A DNA stretch of 64,000 nucleotides from Anaerolineae bacterium (GTDB lineage Bacteria; Chloroflexota; Anaerolineae; Epilineales; Epilineaceae), in assembly GCA_038913135.1 (NCBI GenBank), contig JBCLES010000012.1, positions 1,036 through 65,035 on the forward strand, in the 5' to 3' direction. Within the stretch, counting starts at the first letter, position 1; every line of letters starts with the position of its first letter. Shown here piece by piece: positions 5,302-23,854 of the stretch. The notes under the pieces are model-generated. The model was not told the DNA's origin. It ran no database searches and saw nothing but the letters and a program-made list of their open reading frames with translations. Both the position numbers and the translations under genes were made by a program.

Positions 5302-5841
5302 GTGTTCGACGAGGATTGGCTTGTCGAAGCCGCGCGGACAGATCGGGAGGCGTTCGGCCTTCTGTACGATCGCTATTTCGACACCGTTTATAACTACATC
5401 GCTCGGCGCGTGGATAGCGCCGAGTTAGCCGAGGATATCTCGGCAGCGGTGTGGGAGCGCGTCTTGATCTCGATCGAACGCTACGAATTGCGAGGGGTTC
5501 CTTTCGCCGCATGGCTCTATCGGATAGCCGGCAACCAAATCGCGAATCATCGGCGGAGGCGGCACCTTCTCGCCTTCGTCCCATTCAAGCCGCAGCATAG
5601 TGCGCCCGACGAGCCCCAGGTCAGATACGATGAACGAAGAGCGGTACGCGACGCCTTGCAGGATTTGTCCCACGCAGATCAGGAAGTGCTCGGTTTGTAC
5701 TATTTTTCCGGACTCAAGCCACCCGAGATCGCTGACGTCTTAGGATGCACTCCGGCCGCGGTGCACAAACGGTTGCATCGCGCTAGGACACGCCTGAAGC
5801 GGCGGCTCGAAGGGGAATCCCGTGTCACGGCATCAACCTAA
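5302..5841 (+). CDS. ECF-type RNA polymerase sigma-70 factor
   Basis: Sigma-70 region 2 (FGLLYDRYFDTVYNYIARRV) and region 4 HTH (QEVLGLYYFSGLKPPEIADVLGCTPAAVHKRLHRARTRLK). GTG start with GGGGAG 4 nt upstream. Confidence 0.85.
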   Translation: MFDEDWLVEAARTDREAFGLLYDRYFDTVYNYIARRVDSAELAEDISAAVWERVLISIERYELRGVPFAAWLYRIAGNQIANHRRRRHLLAFVPFKPQHSAPDEPQVRYDERRAVRDALQDLSHADQEVLGLYYFSGLKPPEIADVLGCTPAAVHKRLHRARTRLKRRLEGESRVTAST

Positions 5842-6613
5842 TCCCAATCATTCAAACAACGCATCGGACCCGTTCTTCGAGCTGCTTGGAGACGAACCGA
5901 CGGTCGAACCGGCAACGAGTTACCGGAGCGCGGTGCGCGAGAGGCTCATGAGCTTCCCGCCGCTCGCGGGTCTCATCACGTTCCGAATGCCCGTCATCGG
6001 TCGCGTTTTTCTACCAGGGCTTGTCGGGACGCTCGGAATTGTCGCGATCGGAGCTGGGATGACGGCATTCATCGCACTGTGGCCATTTGAACGCGGCGAC
6101 GACATCGAGCCGGCATCCGTGAGTGAACGAGCCGCAGTCATGTCGGAAGCCGAATCGGCAGGCCCGCCACCACCGGCGCTCCCCGCCCGAGACCTGGCGG
6201 CGGAAGCCAATGAGGCGCGCACTCGCGGCGAAGCGCTGCGATCGTTCGATCCGCCTCGTTCGCCGGTGAGATTGCCCATCCAAGGTCCGGTTGAGGCCGC
6301 CGCGCCACCGACGGCCCCGGAGGCTGCGGAAGCCTTGATCGCAGTGGTCCAACCGACCAGGGCTGCACTTGCCCCGGCGCAGGCGCCTCCGCCGCGCGAC
6401 GAAGGCGGCCGAGGCCGCCCCGTAGCGCCGATCACACCGGTCCCGACCGCTACGGAAGCGGTTGCGCAGCCTGGCGGAGATTTCGTCGAGTTGCCGCCTA
6501 CCGCCACGGCTTGGCCGACATCCGAAGGTCGGCCCACGCTCCCGCCCGCCTTCCCAACCGAAACCCCGCCGACGACCAAGACGCCGGAACCTATACCGAC
6601 TCCGGCACCGTAA
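5822..6613 (+). CDS. Putative anti-sigma factor: single-pass membrane protein with a Pro/Ala-rich extracytoplasmic tail
   Basis: Overlaps the sigma gene by 20 nt. A short cytoplasmic N-terminus, one TM helix (FLPGLVGTLGIVAIGAGMTAFIALW), then a proline-rich C-terminus. The assignment rests on gene context, not on a motif. Confidence 0.5.
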   Translation: MSRHQPNPNHSNNASDPFFELLGDEPTVEPATSYRSAVRERLMSFPPLAGLITFRMPVIGRVFLPGLVGTLGIVAIGAGMTAFIALWPFERGDDIEPASVSERAAVMSEAESAGPPPPALPARDLAAEANEARTRGEALRSFDPPRSPVRLPIQGPVEAAAPPTAPEAAEALIAVVQPTRAALAPAQAPPPRDEGGRGRPVAPITPVPTATEAVAQPGGDFVELPPTATAWPTSEGRPTLPPAFPTETPPTTKTPEPIPTPAP

Positions 6614-6617
6614 GCCG

Positions 6618-8981
6618 TTGAGGAGAGCCGCCTTGGTCGGTGCTTGGGCCAGGGTTAGCGCATGGGCCAAGGTCGGGTCCGCGGCTTCGGTCGGGCTCGC
6701 GCTCGGACTTTGGCCCGTTGCGGTTTGGGCTGATATCGACCAGAGCGGGACCCATACGATCGTACTTCCCATAACCCTGTCGACTGTTCGCACCGAGGCG
6801 TGCGGGCCGTCGCATTTCGATCCGTGCCCTGCGGCGGGTTCGTTGAGTTCTTGGACCACGCATTGCGGCGGCATGGGTAGAATCCGGGATCTGGTGGCCC
6901 AGGCGCGCTCAGATGAGATGCTCGCCGTTGGGGACGGCGCCGCGACCATCACGCTCGGCGAGAGCGGCCGTTCGTGGTCGCTCAGCTCGCGGCTCTGGTC
7001 TGAGGATGGACCTGCCGACGCAGCGCGCAGGGACTCGCTTGGAATTGTCGGCCTCAACGGCTTGTTCGTGCTCCCAACGTGCCGATCGGGCGCCGGCCGC
7101 TGCGGCTGGGCAGTTGGCGAGCGGGCGCAGATCCTCAATCTGGCGGGAAACACGAGCGGTCCGACTTGCTGGGATCGGCATGACAATTGGCCCGTGGACA
7201 ACACGGGCATCGAACTGAATTCGATCTTCGCTCTGAGTCCAAGCGGCAGGAACCCGGTAGGTTGGATAGTCGGGCGCGACGTCGATCTCGCGGAGATAAT
7301 GGTCCTGTCGTCGAGCGGCGCGACCCCGGTCTGGGAGCGCGAGACGGGGTTCGAGACCGGCGGCACGCCGATTCCACCGCTGCTCGATGTCCAAACGCTC
7401 GACGGCACCAACGCCATCGCTCTAGGGCACAACGGGTTGAGCGGCGTCTTCGCGGATCTCGAGTTGGTTGGGATAGGCAGTGATCGGGTCAGGGCAGAAG
7501 TGACCGACGTCATCGATGGTCTTCCTGAGCAGATCGCGCTCACACCGGATGGCGGTCCGGTCGGATCTTTGATCCTGGGCTGGGCGTTTGGCCGCGCCGA
7601 TCCTTCCGGCAACCGGACGCGGATATGGGAACATGCCAGCGAAGGCTGGTTTCAATCCGCACCGGATCGCGATCAAATCTTGATCGATGCGTTCAGCACT
7701 CGCGCGTTCGGCCAATGGTTCGGCCTTATCGCCAGCGACCCGGGCGACGCGGTGCTCCATTCGCTGGAGGGTGACGGACTCAGCGTTGAGTGGGAGGCGC
7801 GTATGCGAGCCGGCGGCGAATGGGGCGGTCCGGAGCCGGGCGCTGACCCCGATGGACACCTCGCCATCCTCCCACTCGACACAAACCGTGTGGTCTACGC
7901 CGCGGGCGATGAAGTATGGCTGGCGGACGTTGCCGAAGAACGGTGGACCCTACTTCAAACTCGCCGAAAGCTAGTCGGATTCGCGCCGAACGGGCGCGGC
8001 GGCGGGTGGGCTCTGTCTTCGGATGCTGCCGGCAGTCGGCTCTTCGAGCTGCCTGCAACAGGTTCCGGTCGATTGATCAACTCGGTCGGCGATTTGCCCG
8101 CCGGCAACGCCCTGCCCCATCTCAACGCTATCGCGAGCGGCGGTGGGCGTACTTGGGCCGTCGGGCCGAATGGTGAAAGCTGGCGATCTGTGGGCGCACT
8201 CTCCAAGTGGAGGCGGGAAGACCCGCCCGAAGTCGGTCCCTTCGCCAAGGCAGCCGATGATTTCCTCGATGTCGACGTGACGCAGAGCGGAGTTGCATGG
8301 GCGACTGGCGCAGGCGCGGACGGGCACGGCCGGCTGTGGCGCTGGGTCGAGGATGAGTCGGGCTGGGCCGAGGTGGCGCGCCTCGACGAGCCGATCGCGC
8401 TCCGCGCTGTCGCAGCGATCGACGGCGACGGGGGCCGTGTTATCGCTGTCGGGGGCGAGACCATCCTGTTGGCTTTGTCGGACGACTATTGCGGACCGGG
8501 CGCCGAACATTGGCGAGGACCCACCGGATGGATGTGCACCGAATCGATCACCTTCGACATTCCGGCCGGATCGCTAGGTCTCTTGGACGTCGACGTAAGC
8601 TCGGCAGGGGCGACCTGGGCGGTCGGGCGCGATCATTTGCTCCGTCTCAAGTCCGGCGGAGCGATTACTGATCCGGCTGATTGGCGCGCTGACGCACCAC
8701 CGGGCATGCCCGCCGGCGGTCACCCGCTTGCGGTGGCTCTCGTCGATGAATCGGAGGGGGTGGTGGTCCATTCATGCTGTGATGGCTTCGTGCCGGCGGC
8801 GCGCCAACCATCGAACGTTCGCCGCTACCGATCGATCGAGGGCGATAAGCTTGAATCAGTCGGGTCCACGGCCGTCGTCAACGTTCCGATAGCCGACGCG
8901 GTGGTCGATCAAAGAGACGGCGAAGCGCCGAGGGTGTGGCTGACAGGCGATTGGACAACGTTGATCGAAGCCCGCTACTGA
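6618..8981 (+). CDS. Secreted beta-propeller repeat protein (BNR/Ycf48-like TW-AVG repeats), third gene of the ECF sigma operon
   Basis: A TTG at 6618 gives the signal peptide M-RRAALVGAWARVSAWAKVGSAASVGLALGLWPVAVWA|DID. The motif recurs: GRCGWAVGERA, GRNPVGWIVGRD, GGRTWAVGPNGESW, GVAWATGAGADGHGRLW, AGATWAVGRDH. The track's longer ORF (6462) overlaps the anti-sigma gene. Confidence 0.55.
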   Translation: MRRAALVGAWARVSAWAKVGSAASVGLALGLWPVAVWADIDQSGTHTIVLPITLSTVRTEACGPSHFDPCPAAGSLSSWTTHCGGMGRIRDLVAQARSDEMLAVGDGAATITLGESGRSWSLSSRLWSEDGPADAARRDSLGIVGLNGLFVLPTCRSGAGRCGWAVGERAQILNLAGNTSGPTCWDRHDNWPVDNTGIELNSIFALSPSGRNPVGWIVGRDVDLAEIMVLSSSGATPVWERETGFETGGTPIPPLLDVQTLDGTNAIALGHNGLSGVFADLELVGIGSDRVRAEVTDVIDGLPEQIALTPDGGPVGSLILGWAFGRADPSGNRTRIWEHASEGWFQSAPDRDQILIDAFSTRAFGQWFGLIASDPGDAVLHSLEGDGLSVEWEARMRAGGEWGGPEPGADPDGHLAILPLDTNRVVYAAGDEVWLADVAEERWTLLQTRRKLVGFAPNGRGGGWALSSDAAGSRLFELPATGSGRLINSVGDLPAGNALPHLNAIASGGGRTWAVGPNGESWRSVGALSKWRREDPPEVGPFAKAADDFLDVDVTQSGVAWATGAGADGHGRLWRWVEDESGWAEVARLDEPIALRAVAAIDGDGGRVIAVGGETILLALSDDYCGPGAEHWRGPTGWMCTESITFDIPAGSLGLLDVDVSSAGATWAVGRDHLLRLKSGGAITDPADWRADAPPGMPAGGHPLAVALVDESEGVVVHSCCDGFVPAARQPSNVRRYRSIEGDKLESVGSTAVVNVPIADAVVDQRDGEAPRVWLTGDWTTLIEARY

Positions 8982-9013
8982 AATCTCATCTGTTTCACCC
9001 GGCCGAGCATCGA

Positions 9014-12000
9014 TCACCGATTGCGGAGTAGAAGCGGCAACCAGACTCGCACCGGCCGAGTGTTGGCCCGTCCGGGGCTGCCGTTCGAGCGGAGCGCGAT
9101 CCAATTCGTCGGATCGTTCCCGTAAACCAGCGCATCGACCCGTTCGAGCGATTCGCCATGTACGGCTCGCGAACCGGGCCACGGCGACTCCATCGCATAC
9201 TTCACGCGATCGATGACCACCCATGGGCCATCCTCGACGGTCGCCGACGAACCTTCAGGCGGAGCGACCAGCACGATCTCGCCGGTGGCACGGCCTAGAG
9301 TTCCCTCCCATGGCCCGAGCACCTGCACATCATCCGGCACGGAATGCAGGGTTCGGAAAACGCTTGGCTCTACGGAAGTCAGAAGCAGGAACTCGCCCGG
9401 ATACATGACGAACCCCGGCGGAAAGTGCACGATAACCGAACCGATTGCCGCCCACTTGCCGGTCGCGTCGCCATCGCCACCGCCCAGAGCCACCGGAGCA
9501 TCAGAAACGTTCAATAGCTCGACGAATTGAGGGTTTATCCCGCTCGGCCGAGCCAAGATCTCATTTATTACAACCGGCCCAATTGAGGGCGGCGCGTTCG
9601 TCGCGCCGTCGCCCGCACGAAATGTTTCGACGGTGTCAGGCGCGGACACACCGAACGTCGGCGTCACCAGCGCCGTGAAGTCGATGCCGCCAGCCGTCAC
9701 CAACCGACCGAACGAGACGTTCTGACGCGAAGCGAGGAATCGGGCGCGCCGGAAGTAACCGGTCGGCGCGCCGGAAGCGTCCGCGGAACAGAGAGTGACC
9801 TCCTCCCCATCCGCGCCGAAAGCAAAGCCCGCTCCGCCGGCCGCATTGCGCAGATCCGCCTCATAGAAGGCTGCGTATCCGCCAGGTTCGATAATCGTCC
9901 CGTCCGGAATCCTGAACTTGCGGGGCTCGTCCCGATCGTCCGAAAGGTACCACCCGCCGACGTCGACGGCGCCTTCGACCGAAGGATTGTGGAGTTCGAT
10001 AGCATCCTCGTAGGGAGGGTCCGAGCTGGCGAGAACCTCGCTTATCACCACGCGGCCGTCGAAGGCCGGCGCCCGATCGGGCCCGCCGGGCGAACCGCCG
10101 GGTCTTTCGCTTGCGCGCCAGCTTTCAGCATTCCGGGGAGGGATAGCCGGGTCGCGGAGGACCAAGGAATAGCCCAGACCGGCCGGCATCAGCGGCCAGA
10201 AATCGTCGTCGAGATATTTAGCCGACCAGATGACCGCTCCGTTCGGTGCGACGAGCGTGATCCGTTCCCCGCTGTTGGAAAGCCGGCCGTCGTATTCGCC
10301 ATGTACGCGCACGAGTGGGTGGCGGTCAACGAGCGCTGAGGGATCCATGGCCAGGACGAGCCGCCGGCCCGGCTCCAGCGTCGTCCCTTCCGCAAAGGTG
10401 AGAGTGACGCCATCCCGCACCGACACGCCGCTCAAGTCAGCGGTTATAGGCTCGAGGTTGACTATCTCGAGCCACTCCAAATCCGGGTTATCGGTCGGAT
10501 GGTACATCACCTCGGATACCGCAAGCCGCGGCGTACCAAGGGTCACTTCGGCGGCGGCGCTCCAGAGCCCTTCCGCCGTGCGAAGGCGTGCAACGATCTT
10601 GGTCAACCTGTTGGACGGCACGCCGATCGGCCCGCGATACTCACGGGCGCCGGGCGACAGGACAGCGCCGTGCCAAAGGCGTTCATCCGTCCACGCCTTT
10701 CGTGGATCGGAGCCGTCCAAGGTGTAGTAGAGCGTGCCTTCGCTGACCTGGCCCCAGCAGCCTTCGGCCAGCAGGTCGAGTGAGACAACGAAGCCTGAAC
10801 GAGACGTAGATTCTCCGGCCGCCCCGCGGATGCGCGGCGAACTGACCGGTGGAAAAAGTCCCGCGGAGCATAGCTGTTGAAGCAGATCGCCCGATCGGCT
10901 GGGAAAGAATTCCGAAAGCACCTGGTCGCGTTGAGGACGCCAATGGTCGTCGAGCGTCCACGTATTACCAAGAATCGGATGTATGAAAGCCCAATTCTCG
11001 CTTCGGGTCCTGTCGCCGAATGTAACGTCGCCCCACCGCGCCGATTCCCCGACGATTGCCCGTTCAACTCGGGCCGCGATCCTTTCATATCGCGCCGATG
11101 CATTCGCCGGTGCGAGTGCGCCGTCCTCGAAGAGATGCTTCCTGGCCCGATCGGCGAATGCAAGTCGGTACTCGGGGCTTCTGAGGAGCCATCCATGCAG
11201 GCCGGCGGCGCCTTCGGTTTCCACATGTTGTCCGCAACGCCTGGTCCCACACGTATCTGCGCCCGGCTTGTCGCTGCACGGACCACAGAAGTCGCCTTCC
11301 CGGCGGAGAGGAAGAACCTGTTCGTAATCCCACACAAAGAAACGGAAGCCGTCGTCACCGGCGCGGCTGCGCATCGCCGTCCAATTGTTATGCGGCCAGT
11401 CCCAATTGTCGCCATAGAGCTGGATAAGTGTGTAGTCGATGTAGTGATTCATTTCCAGGAACGCTTCCGCGAGCGAATAAGTGTCGCGATCGATCGCGCC
11501 GCCCGGTGCGCTTTCCCTCAGCGCCAGCAAGGACCTGAAGGCAATCGCATCGCCATCGTCCACCCGCCATCCGTCGGGACCTGCGTCAACGTCGGCCGCG
11601 ATCACGTCCCAATCGTCCTCTTGGCCGCCCATGTGATCGGCGCCGAAGGCGTCGTCAAGCTCCTCGGTCACGTTGTACAGTCCCCAATAGAGCCCGTTGA
11701 GGTACAGGTGCGCCCAAGTGCCCCTGGATGTCGCCGACCCCATATCGCCTTGCGTCTCCCGCCCCCATTCGTCGTGAATGTACTGCGCCTTACCCGCGAA
11801 GTAGTGGAGCGTATCCGCTTGGCCGGCGCGGAGGCGGAGTGCGTCAAAGCTGGTCGAACCTTCCCGCTCGAACAAGGGATAACTCAGCCGTCCTGAGCCA
11901 TACTCGCTCCGGAACCGGAGGCTGAAGGAGTGCTTGGCCATTCCGTCCGGCTTGCGGCCCCATCCGCCCGCTATACGAATGCCGGCATCGATCTGGAAGC

Positions 12001-12751
12001 CGGGATCCCCGTCAGCGCGCAACCATTCGGCCGAAGCAGGCCTTTCCCAAGGCCGTTCGACGATGCCGGTAGTCGGGTCGATCCACGACCCTTTTTCCAT
12101 AGGATGCGAATAGATGCCCAGAGTACCCGACTCAACCCCGAACAGGTCATCCGGATCCATCACGATCGAGATGCTCGGAATGCTCAGCAGATCGTCGCGG
12201 ATCGTCTCTCTGTATCGCGGATCCGCCAGCGTAATCCGGGTGTCCATGGCGTAGTCGGCTGGTACTGGTCGTCCAACCGATCGGCCCTCGGGATACGTGC
12301 CCCAAGTGTCCGGATAGCCTGGAGGTGCGCCAGGCTGGACGACGATATCATCCAGGAAGAGATAAGTCATCGTCATAGTAGGAGAGGGTCGATACCCGCT
12401 TCTAAAGGCAGCGGCGCGCACGACTGTGGTACTTTCTATCCGGATGGGTCCTACGTAGACTTCACCATGATCCGGTCGCGGCGCAGTGCCGTCGAGGGTG
12501 TAGCGGATCATCGCGTCTGGGAAATCTACGGAAAGATCGAGATCGAATGGCGCGTCGACAAACCCGTGTTCGCGGCTCGCGGAGATTGCCGGTAAGCCGC
12601 GGATGACGCTGCCGTTGACCGCTATCGGAAAGTAGAGCGGTCCTTCAGCGGCATGAGCTACCGTCCGCGGACAGACGAGCGGGCTAGCAGTTAGACAGGC
12701 GATTGCGATCACCGCAACATGCCTGCGATTCAAGCCCCAATTACCGCTCAT
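9014..12751 (-). CDS. CotH-family atypical protein kinase with lamin-tail (LTD) domains and N-terminal chitobiase/Fn3-like domains; secreted
   Basis: CotH core (…HDEWGRETQGDMGSATSRGTWAHLYLNGLYWGLYNVTEELDDAFGADHMGG…WDVIAADV…). Two LTD motifs (AVSEVMYHPTDNPDLEWLEIVN…, VVISEVLASSDPPYEDAIELHNP…GGWYLSDD). Signal peptide MSGNWGLNRRHVAVIAIACLTASPLV with GGGAG upstream of the ATG at 12751. Confidence 0.85.
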   Translation of the reverse strand: MSGNWGLNRRHVAVIAIACLTASPLVCPRTVAHAAEGPLYFPIAVNGSVIRGLPAISASREHGFVDAPFDLDLSVDFPDAMIRYTLDGTAPRPDHGEVYVGPIRIESTTVVRAAAFRSGYRPSPTMTMTYLFLDDIVVQPGAPPGYPDTWGTYPEGRSVGRPVPADYAMDTRITLADPRYRETIRDDLLSIPSISIVMDPDDLFGVESGTLGIYSHPMEKGSWIDPTTGIVERPWERPASAEWLRADGDPGFQIDAGIRIAGGWGRKPDGMAKHSFSLRFRSEYGSGRLSYPLFEREGSTSFDALRLRAGQADTLHYFAGKAQYIHDEWGRETQGDMGSATSRGTWAHLYLNGLYWGLYNVTEELDDAFGADHMGGQEDDWDVIAADVDAGPDGWRVDDGDAIAFRSLLALRESAPGGAIDRDTYSLAEAFLEMNHYIDYTLIQLYGDNWDWPHNNWTAMRSRAGDDGFRFFVWDYEQVLPLRREGDFCGPCSDKPGADTCGTRRCGQHVETEGAAGLHGWLLRSPEYRLAFADRARKHLFEDGALAPANASARYERIAARVERAIVGESARWGDVTFGDRTRSENWAFIHPILGNTWTLDDHWRPQRDQVLSEFFPSRSGDLLQQLCSAGLFPPVSSPRIRGAAGESTSRSGFVVSLDLLAEGCWGQVSEGTLYYTLDGSDPRKAWTDERLWHGAVLSPGAREYRGPIGVPSNRLTKIVARLRTAEGLWSAAAEVTLGTPRLAVSEVMYHPTDNPDLEWLEIVNLEPITADLSGVSVRDGVTLTFAEGTTLEPGRRLVLAMDPSALVDRHPLVRVHGEYDGRLSNSGERITLVAPNGAVIWSAKYLDDDFWPLMPAGLGYSLVLRDPAIPPRNAESWRASERPGGSPGGPDRAPAFDGRVVISEVLASSDPPYEDAIELHNPSVEGAVDVGGWYLSDDRDEPRKFRIPDGTIIEPGGYAAFYEADLRNAAGGAGFAFGADGEEVTLCSADASGAPTGYFRRARFLASRQNVSFGRLVTAGGIDFTALVTPTFGVSAPDTVETFRAGDGATNAPPSIGPVVINEILARPSGINPQFVELLNVSDAPVALGGGDGDATGKWAAIGSVIVHFPPGFVMYPGEFLLLTSVEPSVFRTLHSVPDDVQVLGPWEGTLGRATGEIVLVAPPEGSSATVEDGPWVVIDRVKYAMESPWPGSRAVHGESLERVDALVYGNDPTNWIALRSNGSPGRANTRPVRVWLPLLLRNR

Positions 12752-12858
12752 CCCACACTCCCGTCGTCGGCGCGCGATGTGCCGCTCTGTTTGCAATGAT
12801 ATCAACACTCGGGCCTTACTGGCGCGGACGGCTAGTAGTCCGATATTCCATGCCCGTT

Positions 12859-12943
12859 GGTTAAGATGTGTGCCCGGTTAAACTGTTTTCATTGTTCCGG
12901 CGATAGGTTAACCATTGATCGTTGAAGGCCCTGCAAGCTTGCA
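12859..12943. promoter_or_regulatory. Candidate operator elements in the divergent CotH / VTC promoter region: three GGTTAA direct repeats and a 12-bp palindrome TGCAAGCTTGCA
   Basis: GGTTAA at 12859-12864, 12876-12881 and 12906-12911 (the last as GGTTAACC); the first two are each preceded by TGCCCG. TGCAAGCTTGCA at 12932-12943. The region is locally AT-richer than its surroundings. Confidence 0.3.
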
Positions 12944-12975
12944 TCCGCAAGCACCCGTTCGCCCACTGAGGCATC

Positions 12976-13779
12976 ATGTCGCTCTCCGGATTCGATAGAA
13001 TCGAACTCAAGTACCTGGTCGATGACGCGCAACGCCGCGCTATCACGGAGGGCTTGCGCGATTGCGTGCCCGACGCTCACGGTGACGCCAGGGGCTGCTA
13101 TCCCATAACCTCCGCCTACTATGACGGGCCGGATCTGGCGATCTACTGGGATCGCGAGCGTGGCGTCCCGTCACGGCGCAAAATACGGGTCAGGGTATAC
13201 GGCGATTCCGGTACGGCGGGGCGGCCGGCGAGCTTCCTCGAGATCAAGCACAAGTACGGCAGGCGGATCTCGAAGCGCAGAGTAGAGCTGACGGTATCGG
13301 ATGGTCTCAGGGTGGGTCGTGGACTGGAGACGACGGCTGAGCTAAGCGCGGCTGGGCGTCTTATCGTCCAAGAAGCTCAGGGCCTGGTGAAGGCGAACCA
13401 GCTCAGGCCGACTTGCTGCGTGCGCTACATTCGCCAGGCGTTTCAGGGAAGTGCACCGAATGCCGATCTCCGCGTCACGTTCGACGACACCGTCGGCTGC
13501 CGGGCGTACGATCTGATCCCGAAGGCGGACGATACCGATTATCCTGTTCCGATCTTGAGCGACGGACTGTCCATCCTCGAGATCAAAGTAGACGTCAGTG
13601 CGCCTAAGTGGTTGGCCGATCTGATCGCATCCGTCGGCTGCGTTCAGCGGCCGATGAGCAAGTACTCTTGGGCGGTTGAAGCGCTTGGCCTGGTTCAACT
13701 CTCCGGCGCGGCGACCTTCTCGATGGTGGCGGCGCGCCGACGCACCGCGATCGAAGCACCGACCGGAGCACGTTCGTGA
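12976..13779 (+). CDS. VTC-domain (CYTH-like, polyphosphate-polymerase-type) protein
   Basis: N-terminal RIELKYLV (E-x-K of the CYTH/VTC fold), and ASFLEIKHKYGRRISKRRVE, which resembles the Vtc4 catalytic-domain family. Confidence 0.8.
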   Translation: MSLSGFDRIELKYLVDDAQRRAITEGLRDCVPDAHGDARGCYPITSAYYDGPDLAIYWDRERGVPSRRKIRVRVYGDSGTAGRPASFLEIKHKYGRRISKRRVELTVSDGLRVGRGLETTAELSAAGRLIVQEAQGLVKANQLRPTCCVRYIRQAFQGSAPNADLRVTFDDTVGCRAYDLIPKADDTDYPVPILSDGLSILEIKVDVSAPKWLADLIASVGCVQRPMSKYSWAVEALGLVQLSGAATFSMVAARRRTAIEAPTGARS

Positions 13780-14474
13780 CCGAACTGGAGCAGCTCTTCA
13801 TGCCACCGACAACAACCGCTCCCACGGCATCGCCCTTGACCGTGACGCTCGCCATATTGCTCGCTTTCGTGCTCACGCTGCTAATCGGCGCAGTGTATCA
13901 GCGCACCCATCGCGGCACGCGCTACAGTCAAGACTTCGTGCACGCCCTGGTGCTGCTCGGGACGCTCGTGACCGTGGTGATCATGGGCATCGGGCAGAAC
14001 ATAGCTGCCGCCTTCGGCATCTTCGCGGCCTTTTCGATCATTCGCTTTCGGCGCTCCCTGCCGGAGGCGCGCGACATCGGCTTCGTGTTCTTCGCGATGT
14101 CGGTCGGTCTAGCGGTCGGTTCGGGCGCCTTCGTGCTCGCGATAGTAACGACCCTGCTGGTGTCGCTCTTCGCCGTTTTGCTGGCCCGATTCGATCTATT
14201 CGCGCCTGAGCGTGCAAGCCATATCCTGAGAGTCCGTGTCACCAACGACATCGATTTCGAGGATGCGTTCGAGGAGCCCCTTCGCACGTTGGCGGCGGCT
14301 GTCTCTCTGATCTCGGTCGAATCCGTTCAGGCGGGGATGATGACCGAAGTGCGATATGCTATCCGCTTGGCTGACGGTGTGTCGCCACGCGACGTCGTCA
14401 CGGCATTCCAGGAGCGCAACGGCAACAATCGGGTGATCCTGGCCGCGACGGACCTTGAGCTAGATACCGACTGA
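13776..14474 (+). CDS. DUF4956-family membrane protein
   Basis: Polytopic membrane N-terminus with the IIRFRRSL motif typical of DUF4956. GTG start overlaps the VTC stop (GTGA). Confidence 0.8.
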   Translation: MTELEQLFMPPTTTAPTASPLTVTLAILLAFVLTLLIGAVYQRTHRGTRYSQDFVHALVLLGTLVTVVIMGIGQNIAAAFGIFAAFSIIRFRRSLPEARDIGFVFFAMSVGLAVGSGAFVLAIVTTLLVSLFAVLLARFDLFAPERASHILRVRVTNDIDFEDAFEEPLRTLAAAVSLISVESVQAGMMTEVRYAIRLADGVSPRDVVTAFQERNGNNRVILAATDLELDTD

Positions 14475-14486
14475 TCGGACGCGGTC

Positions 14487-17057
14487 ATGACGACTAAGCC
14501 CGAAGGTGATTCCCAATTGTCGCCGCCCAGTTTACAGTCAGGGGCGAAGTCGGCTCGCGGGTCGGGGCGGGGCCGTTTGGGGAAGGGCCGTTGGGGCAGA
14601 CGTCCTGGTCGACCGATCTTCGTCAATCCCCGCTTCGCCAAATTGTGGCGCGACCTGACACTCCGCCGCACGCGTACCATCCTCGTCGTCGTTTCGATCG
14701 CGGTCGGAGTCTTCGGGCTTGGCGTGATAACAGGCACGCGGCAGATTCTCGACCGCGAGCTTGCGGCCGGCTTTGCCGCCATCAACCCGGCAAGCGCCAC
14801 CTTCACTACGATCGAGCCGTTTGGCAACGACTTCGTCGAGAGCATCGAGAGCATGCGCGAAGTCGGCGTCGCGGAAGGACGCAGTTCGGTCCTCGTCCGG
14901 GTTGAAACCGAGCCCGGGGTGTGGCGCGACGTCCAGCTCAACGTGATCCCCGACTTCGAGAACATCAAGACCGATCGGGTCTCTCCCGACGCCGGTGCTT
15001 GGCCACCACCTGAGCGCGAGCTACTCGTCGAGCGCTCCGCGCTGCGACTCGTCGGCGCTGAAGTCGGGGACATACTGCGGATCAAGATGCCGGACGGACG
15101 GCTCCGCGACATGAAGCTGGCCGGCACGGCGCACGATCTGTTCGCTCTTCTCTATGCGCTAGACGGCGTCGCTTGGGGCTATGTGACCTTCGACACGCTC
15201 GAATGGCTCGGCCACGACCGCAGCTTCAACGAGCTCAGAATCGTCCCGGCGGAAGGCCGGGATAATCGCGAGCATGTCGAGGAAGTCGCCAAGGTCGTGC
15301 GCGACAAGATCGAAAATAGCGGTCGCTCGATCTATTTCATGTCCCTTCCGGAGCCCGGCCAGCATCCTTTGAGTACGACCATCCAGGCCATCCTCCTCCT
15401 TCTGGGTGCGATGGGCGCCCTGGCTCTAGGTCTGAGCGGCCTACTCGTAACCAATACCATCTCTGCGATCGTCGTCCAGGAGACTCGCCAGATTGGCATC
15501 ATGAAGACGATAGGGGCGAGGCAGAGCCAAATCGTCTGGATGTATTTGGGACTCGTCGCTGCATATGGCGTGCTGGCGATACTGGTCGCAGTTCCGCTCG
15601 GTATGCTCGGAACGCGCGCGTTCACGCTGATGATCGCAGGCTTCCTAAACTTCGACATCGAAAGCGCTTCCATGCCGCCCTCCGTGATCCTGCTCCAAGT
15701 AAGCGTCGCCATCCTTGTCCCCATCGTGGCGGCGTTGCCGCCGGTCCTCAAAGGCTCGCGGATCAGCGTTCGTCAGGCGATCGCGGCGTATGGGCTCGGG
15801 CAAGGTCGTTTTGGGACCGGCCGCACCGAGAACCTGGTGCAGCGCATTCTGGATCGAGTCCCGCGGTTGATGGGTCGCATCCCGCGGCCGACTTTGCTTT
15901 CTCTGCGCAACACCTTCCGGCGCAAAGGCCGACTCGCCCTCACCTTGACGACTCTCACGGTCGCCGGATCGATCTTCATGGGCATCTTCAGCATCAGGGA
16001 GAGCCTACTTGGGACGCTCGACGAAGTGCTCGAGATCTGGCAATACGATCTTTGGGTGATGTTGGAGCACCCATACCGTAGCGACCACCTGACGAGTACG
16101 GCGATGAGCGTGCCCGGCGTGGTCGACGCAGAAGGCTGGGGCTTCGCCTCGACGCGCTTGGTTCGCAAGGACGGCGAGGACGAGTTGGGTGACGCCATGT
16201 TCGGATTCATCATCCCGACCATGCTCATGGAGCCGCCTGCGGAGACGGAACTCCTGGCCCCGACCATGTTGCGAGGGCGTTGGCTTCTGCCCGAAGATGA
16301 CAACGCGATCGTAGTAAATTCGGAGGTGCTCAAACGGCAACCGGGTGTCGATCTAGGCGACACCGTCACATTGAAGCTCGGGGGGCGCGACTCGGACTGG
16401 GTTATCGTCGGGGTGGCGCAATCTCCATTCCCAAGTCCGATCGTCTATGTCCCTTACCCGCACTACGCGCGGACGACCAACGATGCTGAGCGCGCCGGCA
16501 CCATGATGGTCCTCACTGCGGAGCACGACCTATCGAGCCAGCTGGCGACGGCAACGGAGCTCGAGGACGCGCTACAGCGGGCCGGGGTCGACGTGACCGG
16601 CATCTTCAAGATGGCCGAAGAGCGTTCCGAAGCCGAGTCGACGTTCACTTCGATAATCACGCTGCTCTTGATGGTCGCCGTTCTCCTAGCCGTAGTCGGG
16701 GGCCTCGGCCTGATGGGGACGATGAGCCTCAATGTTATCGAGCGCACCCGTGAAATCGGAGTGATGCGCGCCATCGGCGCCTCGACGAGATCGGTCCTGC
16801 AGATCGTCATCGTCGAAGGCGCCCTAATCGGCGGGATGAGCTGGGCGCTCGGCGCCATTTTCTCTATCCCGCTCACCATCGTACTCGGCAACGCGATCGG
16901 CAATGCGCTGCTTCAGATCCCACTATCCTTCACTTTCTCGGTCACCGGCGCGGTCATCTGGCTGGCTACGGTGATGATCCTGTCGTTGGTTGCCAGCCTC
17001 ACGCCGGCATGGAACGCGTCTCGGGTTAGCGTTCAAGAATCGCTTGCCTACGAATAG
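14487..17057 (+). CDS. ABC-type permease with two FtsX domains (MacB/YbbP-like), no adjacent ATPase
   Basis: 856 aa. N-terminal LRRTRTILVVVSIAVGVFGLGVI, and a second FtsX module near the C-terminus (TREIGVMRAIGASTRSVLQIVIVEGALIGG). Starts 13 nt downstream of the DUF4956 gene. Confidence 0.8.
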   Translation: MTTKPEGDSQLSPPSLQSGAKSARGSGRGRLGKGRWGRRPGRPIFVNPRFAKLWRDLTLRRTRTILVVVSIAVGVFGLGVITGTRQILDRELAAGFAAINPASATFTTIEPFGNDFVESIESMREVGVAEGRSSVLVRVETEPGVWRDVQLNVIPDFENIKTDRVSPDAGAWPPPERELLVERSALRLVGAEVGDILRIKMPDGRLRDMKLAGTAHDLFALLYALDGVAWGYVTFDTLEWLGHDRSFNELRIVPAEGRDNREHVEEVAKVVRDKIENSGRSIYFMSLPEPGQHPLSTTIQAILLLLGAMGALALGLSGLLVTNTISAIVVQETRQIGIMKTIGARQSQIVWMYLGLVAAYGVLAILVAVPLGMLGTRAFTLMIAGFLNFDIESASMPPSVILLQVSVAILVPIVAALPPVLKGSRISVRQAIAAYGLGQGRFGTGRTENLVQRILDRVPRLMGRIPRPTLLSLRNTFRRKGRLALTLTTLTVAGSIFMGIFSIRESLLGTLDEVLEIWQYDLWVMLEHPYRSDHLTSTAMSVPGVVDAEGWGFASTRLVRKDGEDELGDAMFGFIIPTMLMEPPAETELLAPTMLRGRWLLPEDDNAIVVNSEVLKRQPGVDLGDTVTLKLGGRDSDWVIVGVAQSPFPSPIVYVPYPHYARTTNDAERAGTMMVLTAEHDLSSQLATATELEDALQRAGVDVTGIFKMAEERSEAESTFTSIITLLLMVAVLLAVVGGLGLMGTMSLNVIERTREIGVMRAIGASTRSVLQIVIVEGALIGGMSWALGAIFSIPLTIVLGNAIGNALLQIPLSFTFSVTGAVIWLATVMILSLVASLTPAWNASRVSVQESLAYE

Positions 17058-19235: not shown

Positions 19236-20315
19236 ATGCGCACTCACCAGCAACCAACTACGCAAGACACTCCGCAATCGATCGAGGACAAGCCTCTTCG
19301 GGTCGGATCCAGTTCGGTCAGTTGGGCCTTGCTTATTGCAGGGACGATTGCTCTCGGAGGTTGCTCGAACGTCGCGCCTCCGCCGTCGCCGGCATCGGAA
19401 TCGACCGCGACCCCCGTTCCGCCTGACGCCGCCGCGCTCGCTACCCTAAGCTCCGCGGCGGCCGTCGACAGCCGTGCGATCATGTGCGGAGAAGAAAACC
19501 TTGCCGCCTTGAGAGTGGTTTGGGAACGCTATCCTACCGACGCAATTGTTCGAGAGCAGCTTCGCGGTCAACTCGAGACCTGTAAGCAATGGGACGGCCT
19601 TGCGGAGGTGCTCGAAGCCAAGCCGGAAACCGAGCGAACGGACGCCGACCGGCTTGAACTAGCCGGGCTCTACCTTCGACATCTAGGGCGCTTCGCCGAT
19701 GCTGAGGCGGTCGCGGTCCCACTCGCCGAAGGGCGACCGGACAACATGGATATCGTGAGCCTGGCCGCCGCAAGCCTGTACTATCAGGATCGGGTCGAAG
19801 AAGCTGTGCCGATGATCGATCGCTTGTGGGATCAGATGGTCGCGGCGCAGAACTCGGACATCATGACGATGCGCGCGGTGGCATTCCTTGACGCGGGGAA
19901 TCCCGGGCGCGCCGTAAAGATCCTCGATCAAGTGATCGAGCTGTATCCGCGGCACACATTTGCTTTGACCACGCTCGCTCGTGCAAGGCAAGATATGGGC
20001 GACGAGGCTGGAGCGCAAGAGGCGCGCGAGATCAATGAAGTCATGCGCACAGAGGCCAGCTTGAAGGCGCGCCAGGGCCAACGGATGGCCGACCTGACAC
20101 GGACAATCCAAGCAGCATGGGATGCCGGCGAGTTCGAAGAGGTCGAGCGGAACGCATTGCGGATGCTCGACATCGCGCCGGAGGAGACGGCTCCCGAGAT
20201 CTATCGCGTCCTTGGAGATACTTACAATGAACTGGGCCGCCCCGAAGATGCACGAGCAGCCTTCGAACAGGCGGCCGAACTGGAGCGAACCCTGAAAGCG
20301 GAAAGCGAAGGATGA
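19236..20315 (+). CDS. TPR-repeat lipoprotein
   Basis: Lipobox LIAGTIALGGC. Helical repeat content of TPR type (…AVPMIDRLWDQ…, …YNELGRPEDARAAFEQAAEL…). Start at MRTHQQP. Confidence 0.6.
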   Translation: MRTHQQPTTQDTPQSIEDKPLRVGSSSVSWALLIAGTIALGGCSNVAPPPSPASESTATPVPPDAAALATLSSAAAVDSRAIMCGEENLAALRVVWERYPTDAIVREQLRGQLETCKQWDGLAEVLEAKPETERTDADRLELAGLYLRHLGRFADAEAVAVPLAEGRPDNMDIVSLAAASLYYQDRVEEAVPMIDRLWDQMVAAQNSDIMTMRAVAFLDAGNPGRAVKILDQVIELYPRHTFALTTLARARQDMGDEAGAQEAREINEVMRTEASLKARQGQRMADLTRTIQAAWDAGEFEEVERNALRMLDIAPEETAPEIYRVLGDTYNELGRPEDARAAFEQAAELERTLKAESEG

Positions 20316-20392
20316 GCGGATCGAGCGAAAATCGTAGGTCGCTCGGTCTTCGTAGACCTTCATCCCTCGCCGGTCGAGTCAATCGCCGGCGA

Positions 20393-22183
20393 ATGATCGC
20401 GACCGTGAGCATGTTCGGCCTACTCCTTCATGGCTGTGATCAAACAGCCGAACCGCCGACCGAGGAATTTCCAGATCCGTCGGCTCCGACCGTTTCGGCT
20501 GGCGATGCAACCGACACTCCGATTTCGACAGATCTTCGATTCACCGACGGCACGTCTGATTCGGGCATCGACTTCACGCACCTCCCAACGTATACGGAGG
20601 AGCGCTTTATGCCGGAGATTCAAGGGGGCGGCGTCGCGATAATCGACATCGACAGGGATGGAGATCCGGACATCCTCGCGATCAACAGCGGAGCGTTGCG
20701 CTCGGACGCTCGCCCACCTGGCGGAACCAGCCGACTCTACTTGAACGACGGCAGCGGGCGCTTTACAGATGTGACTGCGGAGTGGGGATTGACGTCGGCA
20801 GAGGCAGGCTATGGGATGGGGGCCGCGGTCGGGGACGTGGATGGCGACGGCCGGCAGGATGTCTTTCTGACGGCGTTCGACGAAGGTGATCGACTGCTGC
20901 TCAATACGGGTGCCGGCTTCGTCGATGCGACGGATGAGTATGCCATCCTTCCGGACCCGAAGTGGTCCACTAGTGCCGGATTCCTCGACATGGATAACGA
21001 CGGGGATCTCGATCTCTACGTGGCGCGCTATTCCGAATACGTCCTAGACGAAGCGCAGCGGTGCTACGAGGGCGACCTGCATATCTATTGCACGCCGCAC
21101 TTGTTCGACGCGATCGCAGATAGGCTTCTCCGCAATGACGGCGGCAAGTTCCTCGACGTCACGGACGCCGCCGGAATAGGCGAGCGCCTTGGCCGGGGGC
21201 TTGCCTTCGTCGTCGGCGATATCGATCTCGACGGGGACTCCGACGTGTATGTCGCGAACGATCTGAGCCCCAATCATCTTTGGCTAAACGACGGCTCAGG
21301 CTCGTTCGCGGACATTGCTCCTCGTGCCGGAGTTGCCATGAGCGTCCACGGGATAGCCGAAGCAGGGATGGGCGCGGACATGGGCGACATTGACGGCGAC
21401 GGCAAATTCGATCTGGTCACCACGAATTTCGAGAGTGAGACAACCAACGTACATCTTCAGCAAGACGATCTCACCTTTCGCGAGGTTTCCGACGCGGCGG
21501 GAGTAGGCGAGGCCGCCCGAGCGAGACTCAAGTGGGGCATCGATCTATTCGATGCAGACAACGACGGCGACGAGGACTTGATCGTCGCCAACGGGCACAT
21601 TTATGACAACGCTGGTGAATTCTCCGGCGGTCCGACATTCCCACAGCAAAATACGCTGTACGAGAATCTCGGCGGCGGCGAGTTCATGGACGTGAGCGAT
21701 GTTTCGGGCGACGCTCTCACGGATCGCCAGGTCAGTCGAGGCCTGGTGACCAGCGATCTCGATGGCGACGGCGATCTCGATGCACTCGTCGGCAACAACG
21801 GCGGCACGCTGCAAGTGCTTGTCAACGAGAGTCGGTCGGTCGGGCACTGGGTCGGATTGTGGCTCGAAGGCGCCGGCCAAGGGGTAGAGACCAGCGCCGG
21901 ACCAGGGGCGAACAAGAGCGCGATCGGCGCGCGCATCGAAGCGCGCATCGGCGATCACACGCTGATCCGTCAAGTGACCAATGCCCTGAGCTACCTCTCG
22001 GCGGGCGATCTAAGGGTGCATATCGGGCTCGGCGATGCGGCGTCGATCGACGAGCTGACGATTCTTTGGCCGGGCGGCGGAGTGCAGACGATCACGGGGC
22101 TCGCCGCGGATACGTACTACCGTATCGTTCAAGGGGCGGAACCGGAGCCGTTCACAGCTGGCGAGCGGGTGATCGCGCCGTAA
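20393..22183 (+). CDS. CRTAC1-family protein: FG-GAP/VCBS beta-propeller repeats plus C-terminal ASPIC/UnbV domain; lipoprotein
   Basis: Lipobox LLLHGC. Repeated DxDGDGxxD calcium-binding FG-GAP motifs (IDRDGDPDI, VDGDGRQDV, MDNDGDLDL, IDLDGDSDV, IDGDGKFDL, ADNDGDEDL, LDGDGDLDA). The ASPIC/UnbV C-terminus ends …RVHIGLGDAASIDELTILWPGGGVQTI. Confidence 0.8.
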   Translation: MIATVSMFGLLLHGCDQTAEPPTEEFPDPSAPTVSAGDATDTPISTDLRFTDGTSDSGIDFTHLPTYTEERFMPEIQGGGVAIIDIDRDGDPDILAINSGALRSDARPPGGTSRLYLNDGSGRFTDVTAEWGLTSAEAGYGMGAAVGDVDGDGRQDVFLTAFDEGDRLLLNTGAGFVDATDEYAILPDPKWSTSAGFLDMDNDGDLDLYVARYSEYVLDEAQRCYEGDLHIYCTPHLFDAIADRLLRNDGGKFLDVTDAAGIGERLGRGLAFVVGDIDLDGDSDVYVANDLSPNHLWLNDGSGSFADIAPRAGVAMSVHGIAEAGMGADMGDIDGDGKFDLVTTNFESETTNVHLQQDDLTFREVSDAAGVGEAARARLKWGIDLFDADNDGDEDLIVANGHIYDNAGEFSGGPTFPQQNTLYENLGGGEFMDVSDVSGDALTDRQVSRGLVTSDLDGDGDLDALVGNNGGTLQVLVNESRSVGHWVGLWLEGAGQGVETSAGPGANKSAIGARIEARIGDHTLIRQVTNALSYLSAGDLRVHIGLGDAASIDELTILWPGGGVQTITGLAADTYYRIVQGAEPEPFTAGERVIAP

Positions 22184-23052: not shown

Positions 23053-23646
23053 TCATCGACCAGAACCAGGCCCAACCCGGATGTCGAGTCCGCCATCGCC
23101 CGAGTACTCTTCCGGATCGATGCCGGCCGCTTCGGCGATCACGCGTCGCGCCCCGTCGATGCGTTCGCCATGAGCGCTGATCCGGCTGATCGCGCCGATC
23201 ATTTCACGGGTAAGGCAGAGCGATGAGTCGACCTCGCAGGCTTGCATGAGCTTGACCGATTCGATGAAAGTGTCGACCAACCCGGCCTCCGCCAGAAGGA
23301 GTCCTTCCGCGCAGGCGGGCGCATCCATGCCGAGCAGGCGGTCGCGGCTCGCTTCGAGCGCCGCGAGGTCTATCGAGTCGATCGCCGCTCGCATGCCGCC
23401 GGCATCACTTTCCAAGTCGCCGAGCGACTCGAAGTCCTCGAGCGCGGTGTCCAAACGTTCTTCTTGTCCGTCGAGAAAGGCGCGCACGACCACTTCTTCG
23501 CACTCTCCTTCCACCGTCACGGCCTCCAACGGTTCCATTTCCGGAATCGCCTGGCGGACGAAGTATGCGCCGAAGATCCCGCATGCCAAGCCAAGCATGA
23601 GCATCGCACCGCAGCCGATCGCGCCCCATTTCATGCACCCGTTCAT
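23053..23646 (-). CDS. Hypothetical membrane-anchored acidic protein
   Basis: AGGAG lies 9 nt upstream of the ATG at 23646. One N-terminal TM helix. No recognisable domain. Confidence 0.45.
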   Translation of the reverse strand: MNGCMKWGAIGCGAMLMLGLACGIFGAYFVRQAIPEMEPLEAVTVEGECEEVVVRAFLDGQEERLDTALEDFESLGDLESDAGGMRAAIDSIDLAALEASRDRLLGMDAPACAEGLLLAEAGLVDTFIESVKLMQACEVDSSLCLTREMIGAISRISAHGERIDGARRVIAEAAGIDPEEYSGDGGLDIRVGPGSGR

Positions 23647-23854
23647 CGTTAGATACTCCTTGAATCTAGATGGATCCCTTGCCGCCGCCCGCCTTGTCGG
23701 TGGCGAACGCCTGTTCTATACTAGCGTGCGTTCGCACCGGTCGACATTTAGAGGCCTACGCATACTATCATCCGGCGCGGCCATCTACGACGAACCGACC
23801 GCCGCGTTTCGGCCCCACCGCCCGCATCGATCCGCCGTCCTTCCGGAGTCCCTA

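Follow-up and report, generated by a model that had tools for sequence, protein, structure and literature searches.

Genes of the CotH, polyphosphate-polymerase and DUF4956 families have been reported side by side in more than one bacterial setting. Published gene tables list cotH, polyphosphate-polymerase and DUF4956 genes as accessory genes by Gram-positive pel operons (Streptococcus, Clostridium, Bifidobacterium), while the gene table for NELoc-2 of C. perfringens lists VTC-'tubulin'-CotH genes, among which 222-226-aa 'tubulin/FtsZ' cytoplasmic-membrane proteins come after each VTC gene; we take these proteins to be DUF4956. The module as such is known, and we found no functional study of the CotH/VTC/DUF4956 trio in the literature. 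Described relatives of its separate parts are the eukaryotic VTC complex (Vtc4/Vtc3/Vtc1), which couples cytosolic synthesis of polyphosphate to its membrane translocation (PMC9911596), the MgtC/SapB/YhiD membrane proteins, and the spore-coat CotH of Bacillus, to which the MacB-type (type VII) and ADOP permeases may be added for a fourth gene that adjoins the trio in the DNA analysed here.

That DNA is a 64-kb stretch from an Anaerolineae bacterium, hereafter the window. A preliminary description had placed four genes in it, all of which our ORF check recovers at the same coordinates, and whose domain identities are upheld by Pfam (the CotH, LTD, VTC and DUF4956 profiles are all matched). On the minus strand lies the CotH ORF (9014..12808, 1264 aa; the 1245-aa form starts at the ATG at 12751). 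It is transcribed divergently, across a 224-nt spacer (12752..12975), from VTC (12976..13779, plus strand, 267 aa), DUF4956 (13776..14474, plus strand, 232 aa) and a permease (14487..17057, plus strand, 856 aa, with Pfam FtsX matched in two stretches). The stop of VTC and the start of DUF4956 overlap in a GTGA, as had been described, whereas the spacing from DUF4956 to the permease is 12 nt (14475..14486) and not the 13 nt given previously. The trio in the window is an ordinary copy of a widespread CotH/VTC/DUF4956 module: it shares with the pel and NELoc-2 loci the same three families side by side, a secreted CotH, a stand-alone cytoplasmic VTC, and a small DUF4956 protein that crosses the membrane several times and ends in an ACT-like domain. 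It differs in that the 64 kb hold neither pel genes nor DUF4832 (nearly all unnested window ORFs of at least 220 aa were covered, and none is a Pel-type gene, pelDEA(DA)FG), in the orientation of CotH, which is read away from VTC and not in the same direction, in the much larger size of this CotH (1245 aa, with three LTD copies), and in its flanks, which consist of an ECF sigma/beta-propeller operon and a duplicated FtsX permease.

The recurrence of this association, which the preliminary description had asserted, is borne out both by the published gene tables and by our own genome scan, where the trio was reproduced in Chloroflexota, Verrucomicrobiota and one Acidobacteriota locus, and its synteny holds in related genomes. 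Gene content of the loci was taken from HMM hits together with the gene calls of the encoding contigs (high-GC loci). VTC adjoins DUF4956, directly upstream of it, in 78 of the 81 loci, with a raw ORF gap that is mostly between -4 and +60 nt. The link to CotH is looser: a CotH with a signal peptide lies no more than 10 kb from the pair in about 30% of scan loci and in every Chloroflexota-type locus retrieved, and about 70% of scan loci, mostly from Akkermansiaceae, are without a CotH inside 10 kb, from which it follows that VTC-DUF4956 can work without an adjacent CotH. Where the two are linked, an N-terminal hydrophobic signal-like segment is present in 26 of 28 CotH proteins, and two Anaerolineae genomes carry all three genes of the trio in a single operon, in which CotH and VTC overlap by 4 nt and whose flanks are unrelated. 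Fusions of VTC with DUF4956, or involving CotH, were absent among the best 120 or 150 matches listed. Downstream of DUF4956, a Porin_O_P phosphate porin follows in 11 Verrucomicrobiota loci (gaps -4 to +37 nt), with one further locus (L050) in which Porin_O_P is split in two, and a prepilin-like protein follows in 13 other loci, in some of which CotH comes next. The gene 3' of DUF4956 is lineage-dependent yet always codes for an envelope protein (phosphate porin, prepilin-like or CotH), a pattern that is new.

The VTC protein is stand-alone and predicted to be cytoplasmic; it has no SPX domain and no TM segment was predicted in it. It matches Pfam VTC (PF09359) with 125.9 bits against 23 (E 2.4e-36) over profile positions 2-234 of 235. 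A PDB search with the window sequence alone gave no match and a family profile was required; with it, the bacterial VTC family aligns over its full length with the catalytic domain of yeast Vtc4 (3g3q, E 5.7e-12). In this alignment R71, R73 and E202 of the window protein, invariant across the bacterial family, correspond to R264, R266 and E426, the residues that were mutated to inactivate Vtc4 in a cryo-EM study (PMC9911596). That these residues are invariant in the bacterial family is a new observation. Further conserved positions are K12 (the Lys of 'TTKYW' in Vtc4, at least 90% conserved in the bacterial family), K91, K100, Y151, R153, R166, K204 and S228/K229. The window VTC is predicted to be a Vtc4-type triphosphate-tunnel enzyme that polymerises polyphosphate from ATP.

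A different reading of the same fold is that VTC is a triphosphate-tunnel hydrolase, or a CYTH-like enzyme that uses nucleotides, with DUF4956 as a membrane receptor, in which case polyphosphate would play no part in the module. Of the ancestral ExExK, one Glu is retained in the bacterial family (as R-x-E-x-K), at the position where yeast Vtc4 has Thr; this leaves room for hydrolytic triphosphate-tunnel activity, and we found no assay of any bacterial VTC member in the literature. However, the top Pfam and PDB matches are specific to the VTC branch and run over the full length, the three residues that were mutated to inactivate Vtc4 are all kept, and Arg stands in place of the first acidic ExExK residue, as it does in Vtc4, and we regard this reading as improbable. 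The window enzyme and the eukaryotic complex share the homologous catalytic tunnel domain and the pairing of the enzyme with a membrane component. They part company in the missing SPX domain, in the lack of the 3-TM VTC/DUF202 channel domain, and in the nature of the bacterial membrane partner, which is a separate MgtC-like 5-TM protein and a putative channel only; the target compartment in bacteria would be the cell exterior rather than the vacuole.

This partner matches DUF4956 (PF16316) with 70.8 bits, above the threshold of 30.6, and belongs to a family of 6860 clusters at 50% identity, in which the best 150 all stand alone, either at about 230 aa or as shorter fragments. We predict for it five TM helices followed by an ACT-like domain, an MgtC-like architecture that is proposed here for the first time. 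In the predicted topology the two Arg-rich loops share one side of the membrane with the ACT-like domain, and by the positive-inside rule this side is the cytoplasm; the invariant polar residues Y41, Q52, R90, R92 and D100 lie in these loops or at adjoining helix ends, and the family's invariant motifs are FAAFSIIRFRR and GNNR. Within the membrane part there is no conserved charged residue except for R90/R92, clustered where TM3 ends on the cytoplasmic side, and the outward-facing loops are short and variable, so that they give no hint of a direct CotH contact. No solved relative was found by profile sequence search. MgtC/SapB (PF02308) scores 15.5 bits against a cut-off of 31.4, and weak MgtC matches of this kind recur in 29 of 31 family members (best E 0.004), which suggests a distant relationship but not membership. 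Five TM helices and a C-terminal ACT-like domain are what DUF4956 has in common with MgtC/SapB/YhiD proteins, whereas its score far below the Pfam cut-off, its own invariant motifs and its almost constant pairing with VTC set it apart. MgtC proteins, the nearest relatives, are known as regulators, not channels.

The MgtC-like architecture, the weak MgtC matches and the predicted cytoplasmic position of the conserved face lend some credit to a possible, if less probable, explanation in which the polyphosphate made by VTC stays inside the cell and DUF4956 is an MgtC-like membrane anchor or regulator by which synthesis is made to depend on phosphate, Mg2+ or the energy state of the cell. CotH would then be co-regulated rather than fed by the polymer, drawing ATP from lysis or leakage or acting before its export. 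We return to this explanation below, after the properties of CotH.

CotH is called at 1245 aa (9014..12751, minus strand) in public assembly GCA_038913165.1, and both this length and a signal-like N-terminus agree with its earlier description as a secreted minus-strand protein. The N-terminus has a hydrophobic core at aa 12-30 followed by AHA|AEG, giving a predicted Sec signal peptide of aa 1-34 (12650..12751). Thereafter come a CHB_HEX_C/Fn3_assoc segment (CHB_HEX_C_1/Fn3_assoc being matched by Pfam, in line with the chitobiase/Fn3-like domains proposed earlier), the CotH domain (PF08757, 59.6 bits against a cut-off of 23.8, aa 291-596 of the 1264-aa ORF), a second CHB_HEX_C-like segment near aa 673, and three lamin-tail domains that start at aa ~742, ~900 and ~1059 (9107..10528, minus strand, from Pfam LTD and the repeat start motifs). 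The preliminary description had counted two lamin-tail domains; Pfam shows three copies, with 114 bits over three stretches. A PDB search with the single sequence gave no match and again a family profile was required, by which the kinase-fold region (aa ~181-690; 10682..12211, minus strand) matches B. cereus CotH (5jd9, E 2e-21). D451, N455 and D475 of the window protein align with D224, N229 and D247 of the B. cereus protein, the catalytic/metal-binding Asp of which presumably correspond to D228 and D251 of B. subtilis CotH. With the catalytic Asp/Asn/Asp kept, the window CotH is predicted to be catalytically competent. It shares the kinase fold family and these three residues with the Bacillus spore-coat protein, but is secreted, multi-domain and found in a non-sporulating lineage, and no CotB/CotG-type substrates are encoded near it. 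To our knowledge, all characterised CotH proteins use ATP.

The function that we consider most likely for the module, while giving it somewhat less than an even chance, is membrane-coupled synthesis of polyphosphate that serves an extracytoplasmic CotH reaction, with the FtsX permease standing outside. At its core would be the co-translated VTC + DUF4956 pair: cytoplasmic VTC would polymerise polyphosphate from ATP, and DUF4956, whose conserved face is predicted to point to the cytoplasm, would form a complex with the polymerase, hold it at the membrane and either conduct the growing polyphosphate outwards or pass it on to the exterior, a role analogous to that of the membrane domains in the eukaryotic VTC complex, although without homology to them. 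Polyphosphate at the cell surface may then be what the secreted CotH, with its three LTD and two chitobiase-type domains, works on or with. In the simplest version CotH would phosphorylate a component of the wall or matrix with polyphosphate as phosphoryl donor, in a place where ATP is scarce. The coupling of synthesis to translocation by the eukaryotic complex provides a precedent (PMC9911596).

Against this, the explanation by storage inside the cell draws further on the Akkermansiaceae, where most pairs sit among housekeeping genes and are without a nearby CotH, and on PPK2, which lies about 2 kb from the pair in 11 loci. A phosphate porin in the operon suits uptake and storage equally to export, and this is the view preferred in the S. 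intermedius preprint, whose authors suggest that polyphosphate may stay in the cytoplasm. It leaves unexplained, however, that the recurring partners are almost always extracytoplasmic (the CotH proteins with signal peptides, the porin and the prepilin-like protein), and that CotH and VTC can be coupled in translation. Moreover, polyphosphate storage in bacteria normally proceeds via PPK1 or PPK2, and a second synthase that is always membrane-partnered needs a reason.

The permease is a duplicated FtsX/MacB-type protein with 8 predicted TM segments, arranged as two units of one TM segment, an outside domain of ~220 aa and three further TM segments, such that each FtsX unit has four TM segments with the outside domain between TM1 and TM2. 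Its nearest solved structures are MacB (E 4e-12), YtrF and LolC. These paired FtsX domains, each after a TM helix and an outside domain, are shared with the MacB-type (type VII) and ADOP permeases, and like an ADOP the protein has no adjacent ATPase; unlike MacB, it has no fused ATPase either. Its score against ADOP (NCBIfam TIGR03434) is 108 bits, far below the 622-bit cut-off, and so it is not an ADOP member. Within the 64-kb window no ABC ATPase is fused or adjacent to it, in agreement with the earlier description of an 856-aa protein with two FtsX domains and no adjacent partner ATPase. The sole LSGGQ motif of the 64 kb, at 39801, lies inside an SBP/BPD_transp importer operon, and the ATPase at 39360..40487 was rejected as a permease partner on account of its place in this binding-protein-dependent importer operon. 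This ATPase is ~22 kb from the permease.

The preliminary description had gone further and suggested that all four genes make up a system for export or surface modification; on such a reading FtsX would be the exporter or a mechanotransmitter for the VTC/CotH chemistry. This idea has some grounds in the window itself, where the permease begins 12 nt after DUF4956 with no terminator-like site between them, and in the four closely related lineages of the window's clade, where it lies 0-6 kb from DUF4956 and is conserved as well as DUF4956 (permease orthologues are 81% identical in L082, 66% in L083 and 58% in L088, against 82, 70 and 59% for DUF4956). Since the partner gene at this position varies by lineage, a clade-specific add-on is conceivable. 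Yet these four lineages are the only ones with permease orthologues near the trio. FtsX is absent beside the trio in the more distant Chloroflexota loci L087, L089, L006, L090 and L091 (read from gene calls at L090 and L091), and no FtsX-domain protein occurs in any other scan locus with DUF4956, even at E <= 0.01. In two of the four lineages other genes intervene, placing the permease 6.1 kb (three genes) downstream of DUF4956 in L082 and 4.6 kb (two genes) downstream in L088, and in both it stands directly behind a homologous SdrD_B-repeat protein of ~1100 aa. Such a surface protein is the more usual partner of the permease and is missing here at that position. Beyond FtsX, Usp, SpoU, TPR, FG-GAP, DUF420 and gyrB genes, housekeeping genes among them, are equally syntenic in the window's clade, and the adjacency therefore looks like inherited synteny rather than selected linkage. 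Finally, MacB-type permeases need an ATPase, and the window offers only that of the importer. We judge the four-gene system very improbable and already largely refuted by synteny; the permease is a clade-specific neighbour, likely co-transcribed in the window and outside the conserved module.

On its other side the trio is met by an operon (5302..8981) that converges on CotH, comprising an ECF sigma factor (5302..5841, plus strand, NCBIfam ECF), a 263-aa single-pass Pro-rich protein that is possibly an anti-sigma (5822..6613, plus strand) and a secreted beta-propeller-like protein of 782 aa (6633..8981, plus strand). The last, which has five homologue clusters and matched nothing in Pfam or NCBIfam, gives a low-confidence all-beta AF2 model (pLDDT 57) with generic double beta-propeller matches. 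This operon is conserved beside the trio in L082, L083, L085, L087 and L078, a wider Chloroflexota range than that of FtsX. The CotH/VTC spacer should hold the promoters of both transcripts, and searches of it gave no sigma-70 consensus and no Rfam match. It is poorly conserved and does not align among relatives, and GGTTAA, present in three copies, was discarded as a regulatory motif for want of conservation among them.

For the window, the outcome on its fourth gene is negative: the orphan permease, for which the locus had seemed special, adjoins the trio by descent and is no basis for designing experiments. The wider interest lies with DUF4956, a family found in several phyla, with gut Akkermansia, oral streptococci and C. 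perfringens among its carriers. That it is paired with a Vtc4-type enzyme suggests that bacteria have a route to polyphosphate which does not depend on PPK1 or PPK2. Should the pair carry the polymer through the membrane for use by CotH, it becomes possible to test where extracellular polyphosphate of bacteria comes from and what secreted kinases use as their energy source. A bolder and rather unlikely proposal is that VTC and DUF4956 together form a polyphosphate synthase-translocase to the cell surface, a counterpart of the eukaryotic VTC complex without homology to it, and that secreted CotH proteins are polyphosphate-dependent kinases or enzymes that attach polyphosphate to the wall or matrix; if true, it would explain how bacteria export polyphosphate and which phosphoryl donor serves secreted kinase-fold enzymes.

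Each of the four open reading frames lies where the preliminary description placed it, and Pfam bears out their domain identities, every one above the curated threshold: CotH with three LTD stretches and CHB_HEX_C_1/Fn3_assoc (9014..12808, -), VTC, whose profile is matched full length (12976..13779, +), DUF4956 (13776..14474, +) and a permease with two FtsX domains (14487..17057, +). The public MAG GCA_038913165.1 has the same four gene calls, its CotH starting at the ATG that gives 1245 aa. Two details require amendment: LTD occurs in three copies rather than two, with a chitobiase-like segment present for a second time, and DUF4956 is separated from FtsX by 12 nt rather than 13 nt. The VTC and DUF4956 genes overlap by GTGA, and CotH and VTC are divergent, with a spacer of 224 nt. 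GGTTAA occurs three times in this spacer (window 12860..12935; spacings of 17 and 30 nt); a role as operator is unsupported, since the spacer gave no alignment when compared with those of relatives.

Scanning genomes with a DUF4956 alignment as anchor, we recovered 80 loci (81 including the window's own), of which Verrucomicrobiota contribute most and Chloroflexota and Acidobacteriota a few; locus counts derive from profile searches of the ORFs in all 81. VTC is the gene just upstream of DUF4956 in 78/81 and CotH is found <=10 kb away in 24/81; the association of the three genes, described earlier as recurrent, recurs among the scan loci and holds in the Chloroflexota loci that we fetched. The trio forms one operon amid unrelated flanks in L090 and in L091, which is labelled Anaerolineae, with CotH and VTC overlapping by 4 nt. 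The third gene of the set differs by lineage: Chloroflexota, Chthoniobacterales and Opitutae have CotH, whereas 11 Verrucomicrobiota loci have a Porin_O_P phosphate porin (gap -4 to +37 nt; among them L035, L041, L042, L051, L053, L057, L060, L065, L069 and L079, at ~10.6-12.1 kb in full-flank loci and right behind DUF4956 elsewhere) and 13 other Verrucomicrobiota loci a prepilin-like protein (directly 3' of DUF4956; L038, L045, L054, L059, L070, L072, L076, L077 and others). Roseibacillus, Haloferula and Luteolibacter carry a VTC-DUF4956-porin operon, with Porin_O_P directly 3' of DUF4956. The prepilin-like protein (~255 aa) has a prepilin-type N-terminal methylation motif and is translationally coupled to DUF4956 in its 13 loci; in L038 and L076 the next gene encodes a giant, LTD-rich CotH (1679-2165 aa). 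No VTC match was found beside DUF4956 in L013 or L009; in L013, from Acidobacteriota, DUF4956 sits between a CotH-like ORF of 413 aa and a Hanks-type Ser/Thr kinase of 1039 aa that bears PD40 repeats (6712..11919).

The permease had been proposed as a fourth part of the trio's system, and this is not supported: among the 81 loci a homologue was found by profile search in the window's own only, and a looser search of the scan loci (two FtsX domains at E <= 0.01) added none. In gene neighbourhoods the trio is syntenic in relatives, whereas FtsX is missing from more distant Chloroflexota that carry it (L087 from Anaerolineales, where SpoU is directly 3' of DUF4956, L089, L006 from Caldilineae, L090 and L091). 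L083 (DUF4956 70% identity) repeats the entire window neighbourhood in a gene-called contig (rhodanese, ECF sigma, 294-aa protein, 786-aa protein, CotH, VTC, DUF4956, FtsX, Usp, SpoU, TPR, FG-GAP, DUF420, gyrB), and is therefore evidence of general synteny, with nothing specific to FtsX. Three genes separate DUF4956 from FtsX in L082 (82% identity) and two in L088 (59% identity), and in both (L082 13365..19302; L088 11699..17768) a homologous ~1100-aa secreted SdrD_B-repeat protein, 53% identical between them over the N-terminal 450 aa, is encoded directly upstream of the FtsX orthologue, which suggests that it is the protein with which the permease really pairs. This protein is missing from the window, where the tight abutment of DUF4956 and FtsX is most readily explained by a local rearrangement, with the SdrD_B gene lost or absent. 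The permease is a real gene of the window's clade (orthologues, where present, share 81%, 66% and 58% identity), and it does lack a partner ATPase beside it, as was claimed: the sole ABC ATPase of the 64 kb, with the sole LSGGQ motif, belongs to a binding-protein-dependent importer operon (39360..40487). Duplicated FtsX permeases that have no ATPase alongside are already recognised as a class; the best NCBIfam match of this one is the ADOP family duplicated permease, yet far below cut-off, and MacB, YtrF and LolC are its closest solved relatives.

An operon convergent on CotH (5302..8981, +), encoding an ECF sigma factor, a Pro/Thr-rich single-pass protein of 263 aa and a secreted, beta-propeller-like protein of 782 aa, accompanies the trio over a wider Chloroflexota range than FtsX (L082, L083, L085, L087 and L078), including Anaerolineales and Ardenticatenales loci without an FtsX gene, and is a possible candidate for its regulation. 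The 782-aa protein has no family match and only 5 homologue clusters among 5.8 billion proteins; at low confidence, modelling makes it look like an all-beta, tandem beta-propeller. Elsewhere in the window, a NAGPA-type phosphodiester glycosidase ('uncovering enzyme' family), a further enzyme of surface phosphate chemistry, adjoins an amino-acid-kinase-family gene (53886..54809, +; 52773..53852, +). There are also two large FG-GAP/UnbV_ASPIC proteins (20312..22183, +; 28707..32708, -), of which the 1333-aa one has its own TPR repeats and the other is preceded by a separate TPR gene, this latter pair being syntenic with the trio neighbourhood in relatives. The gyrB ORF (23246..26023, +) is over-extended at its 5' end by ~200 codons, an ORF-listing artefact, given that HATPase_c begins only at aa 255 and its orthologue in L083 is 717 aa long.

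With 33 bacterial homologues as a profile, VTC aligns full length with the catalytic domain of the yeast polyphosphate polymerase subunit Vtc4 (E 5.7e-12). R71, R73 and E202 (window numbering), invariant across the bacterial family, align with Vtc4 R264, R266 and E426, whose mutation served to inactivate the yeast enzyme in a cryo-EM study (PMC9911596), and further tunnel residues are kept (K12, K91, K100, Y151, R153, R166, K204, S228, K229). Because the N-terminal motif, R-x-E-x-K, stands midway between ExExK, as in hydrolytic tunnel enzymes, and R-x-T-x-K, as in Vtc4, we retain as a minor rival that the protein may be a hydrolase. The window's VTC protein has neither an SPX domain nor a TM segment. 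At its N-terminus CotH carries a typical signal peptide (hydrophobic core aa 12-30, then AHA|AEG), and a hydrophobic signal-like start is present in 26/28 CotH genes linked to VTC-DUF4956 in fetched loci. The kinase-region profile of the window's CotH matches B. cereus CotH (E 2e-21), with D451, N455 and D475 aligning to D224, N229 and D247. In L082 (5245..9059, -) CotH is called as two genes, one of 761 aa with the CotH domains and one of 510 aa with LTD alone, through either a split or a frameshift.

A cytoplasmic enzyme always found with a membrane partner, a recurrent third gene whose product is always extracytoplasmic, and a eukaryotic precedent together point to a membrane-spanning process. 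The eukaryotic VTC homologue couples polyphosphate synthesis to translocation (PMC9911596), since free cytosolic polyphosphate is harmful. On our best reading, VTC would dock on DUF4956 and synthesise polyphosphate at the membrane, the docked pair would hand the polymer outward, and CotH would use or process it at the cell surface. The parts list, conserved residues, predicted topology and synteny are shown directly, alongside which we infer VTC-DUF4956 complex formation, polymerase activity, export and use of polyphosphate as donor. The main rival, itself plausible, in which synthesis is cytoplasmic and DUF4956 is an MgtC-like regulator, draws on the resemblance of DUF4956 to MgtC, on the many Akkermansiaceae loci with no CotH adjacent to the pair, and on PPK2 polyphosphate kinase genes near the pair in 11 loci (among them L010, L012, L014, L015, L016, L018, L022, L033, L044 and L055; ~2 kb upstream of VTC on the opposite strand in many Akkermansiaceae), a nearness that could be a functional link or mere family-level synteny.

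Earlier publications already have the trio as an accessory block, unexplained, by the pel operons of streptococci, clostridia and bifidobacteria, and has been published within C. perfringens NELoc-2, whose membrane protein labelled 'tubulin/FtsZ' we take to be DUF4956; our literature search on DUF4956, VTC-domain proteins and CotH with VTC found no functional study. The window has no pel genes among the ORFs scanned (nearly all those of 220 aa or longer not nested in a longer one), and it is therefore a further instance of a known, uncharacterised kind. The preliminary interpretation is thus partly supported, holding for the trio but not for the permease. As an instance in a Chloroflexota-like MAG the window is ordinary, and the observation first made on it is confirmed; as a class, the trio module is a good experimental target, which our analysis makes approachable in three concrete ways, through its catalytic residues, through the MgtC-like fold and through the operons that include a porin.
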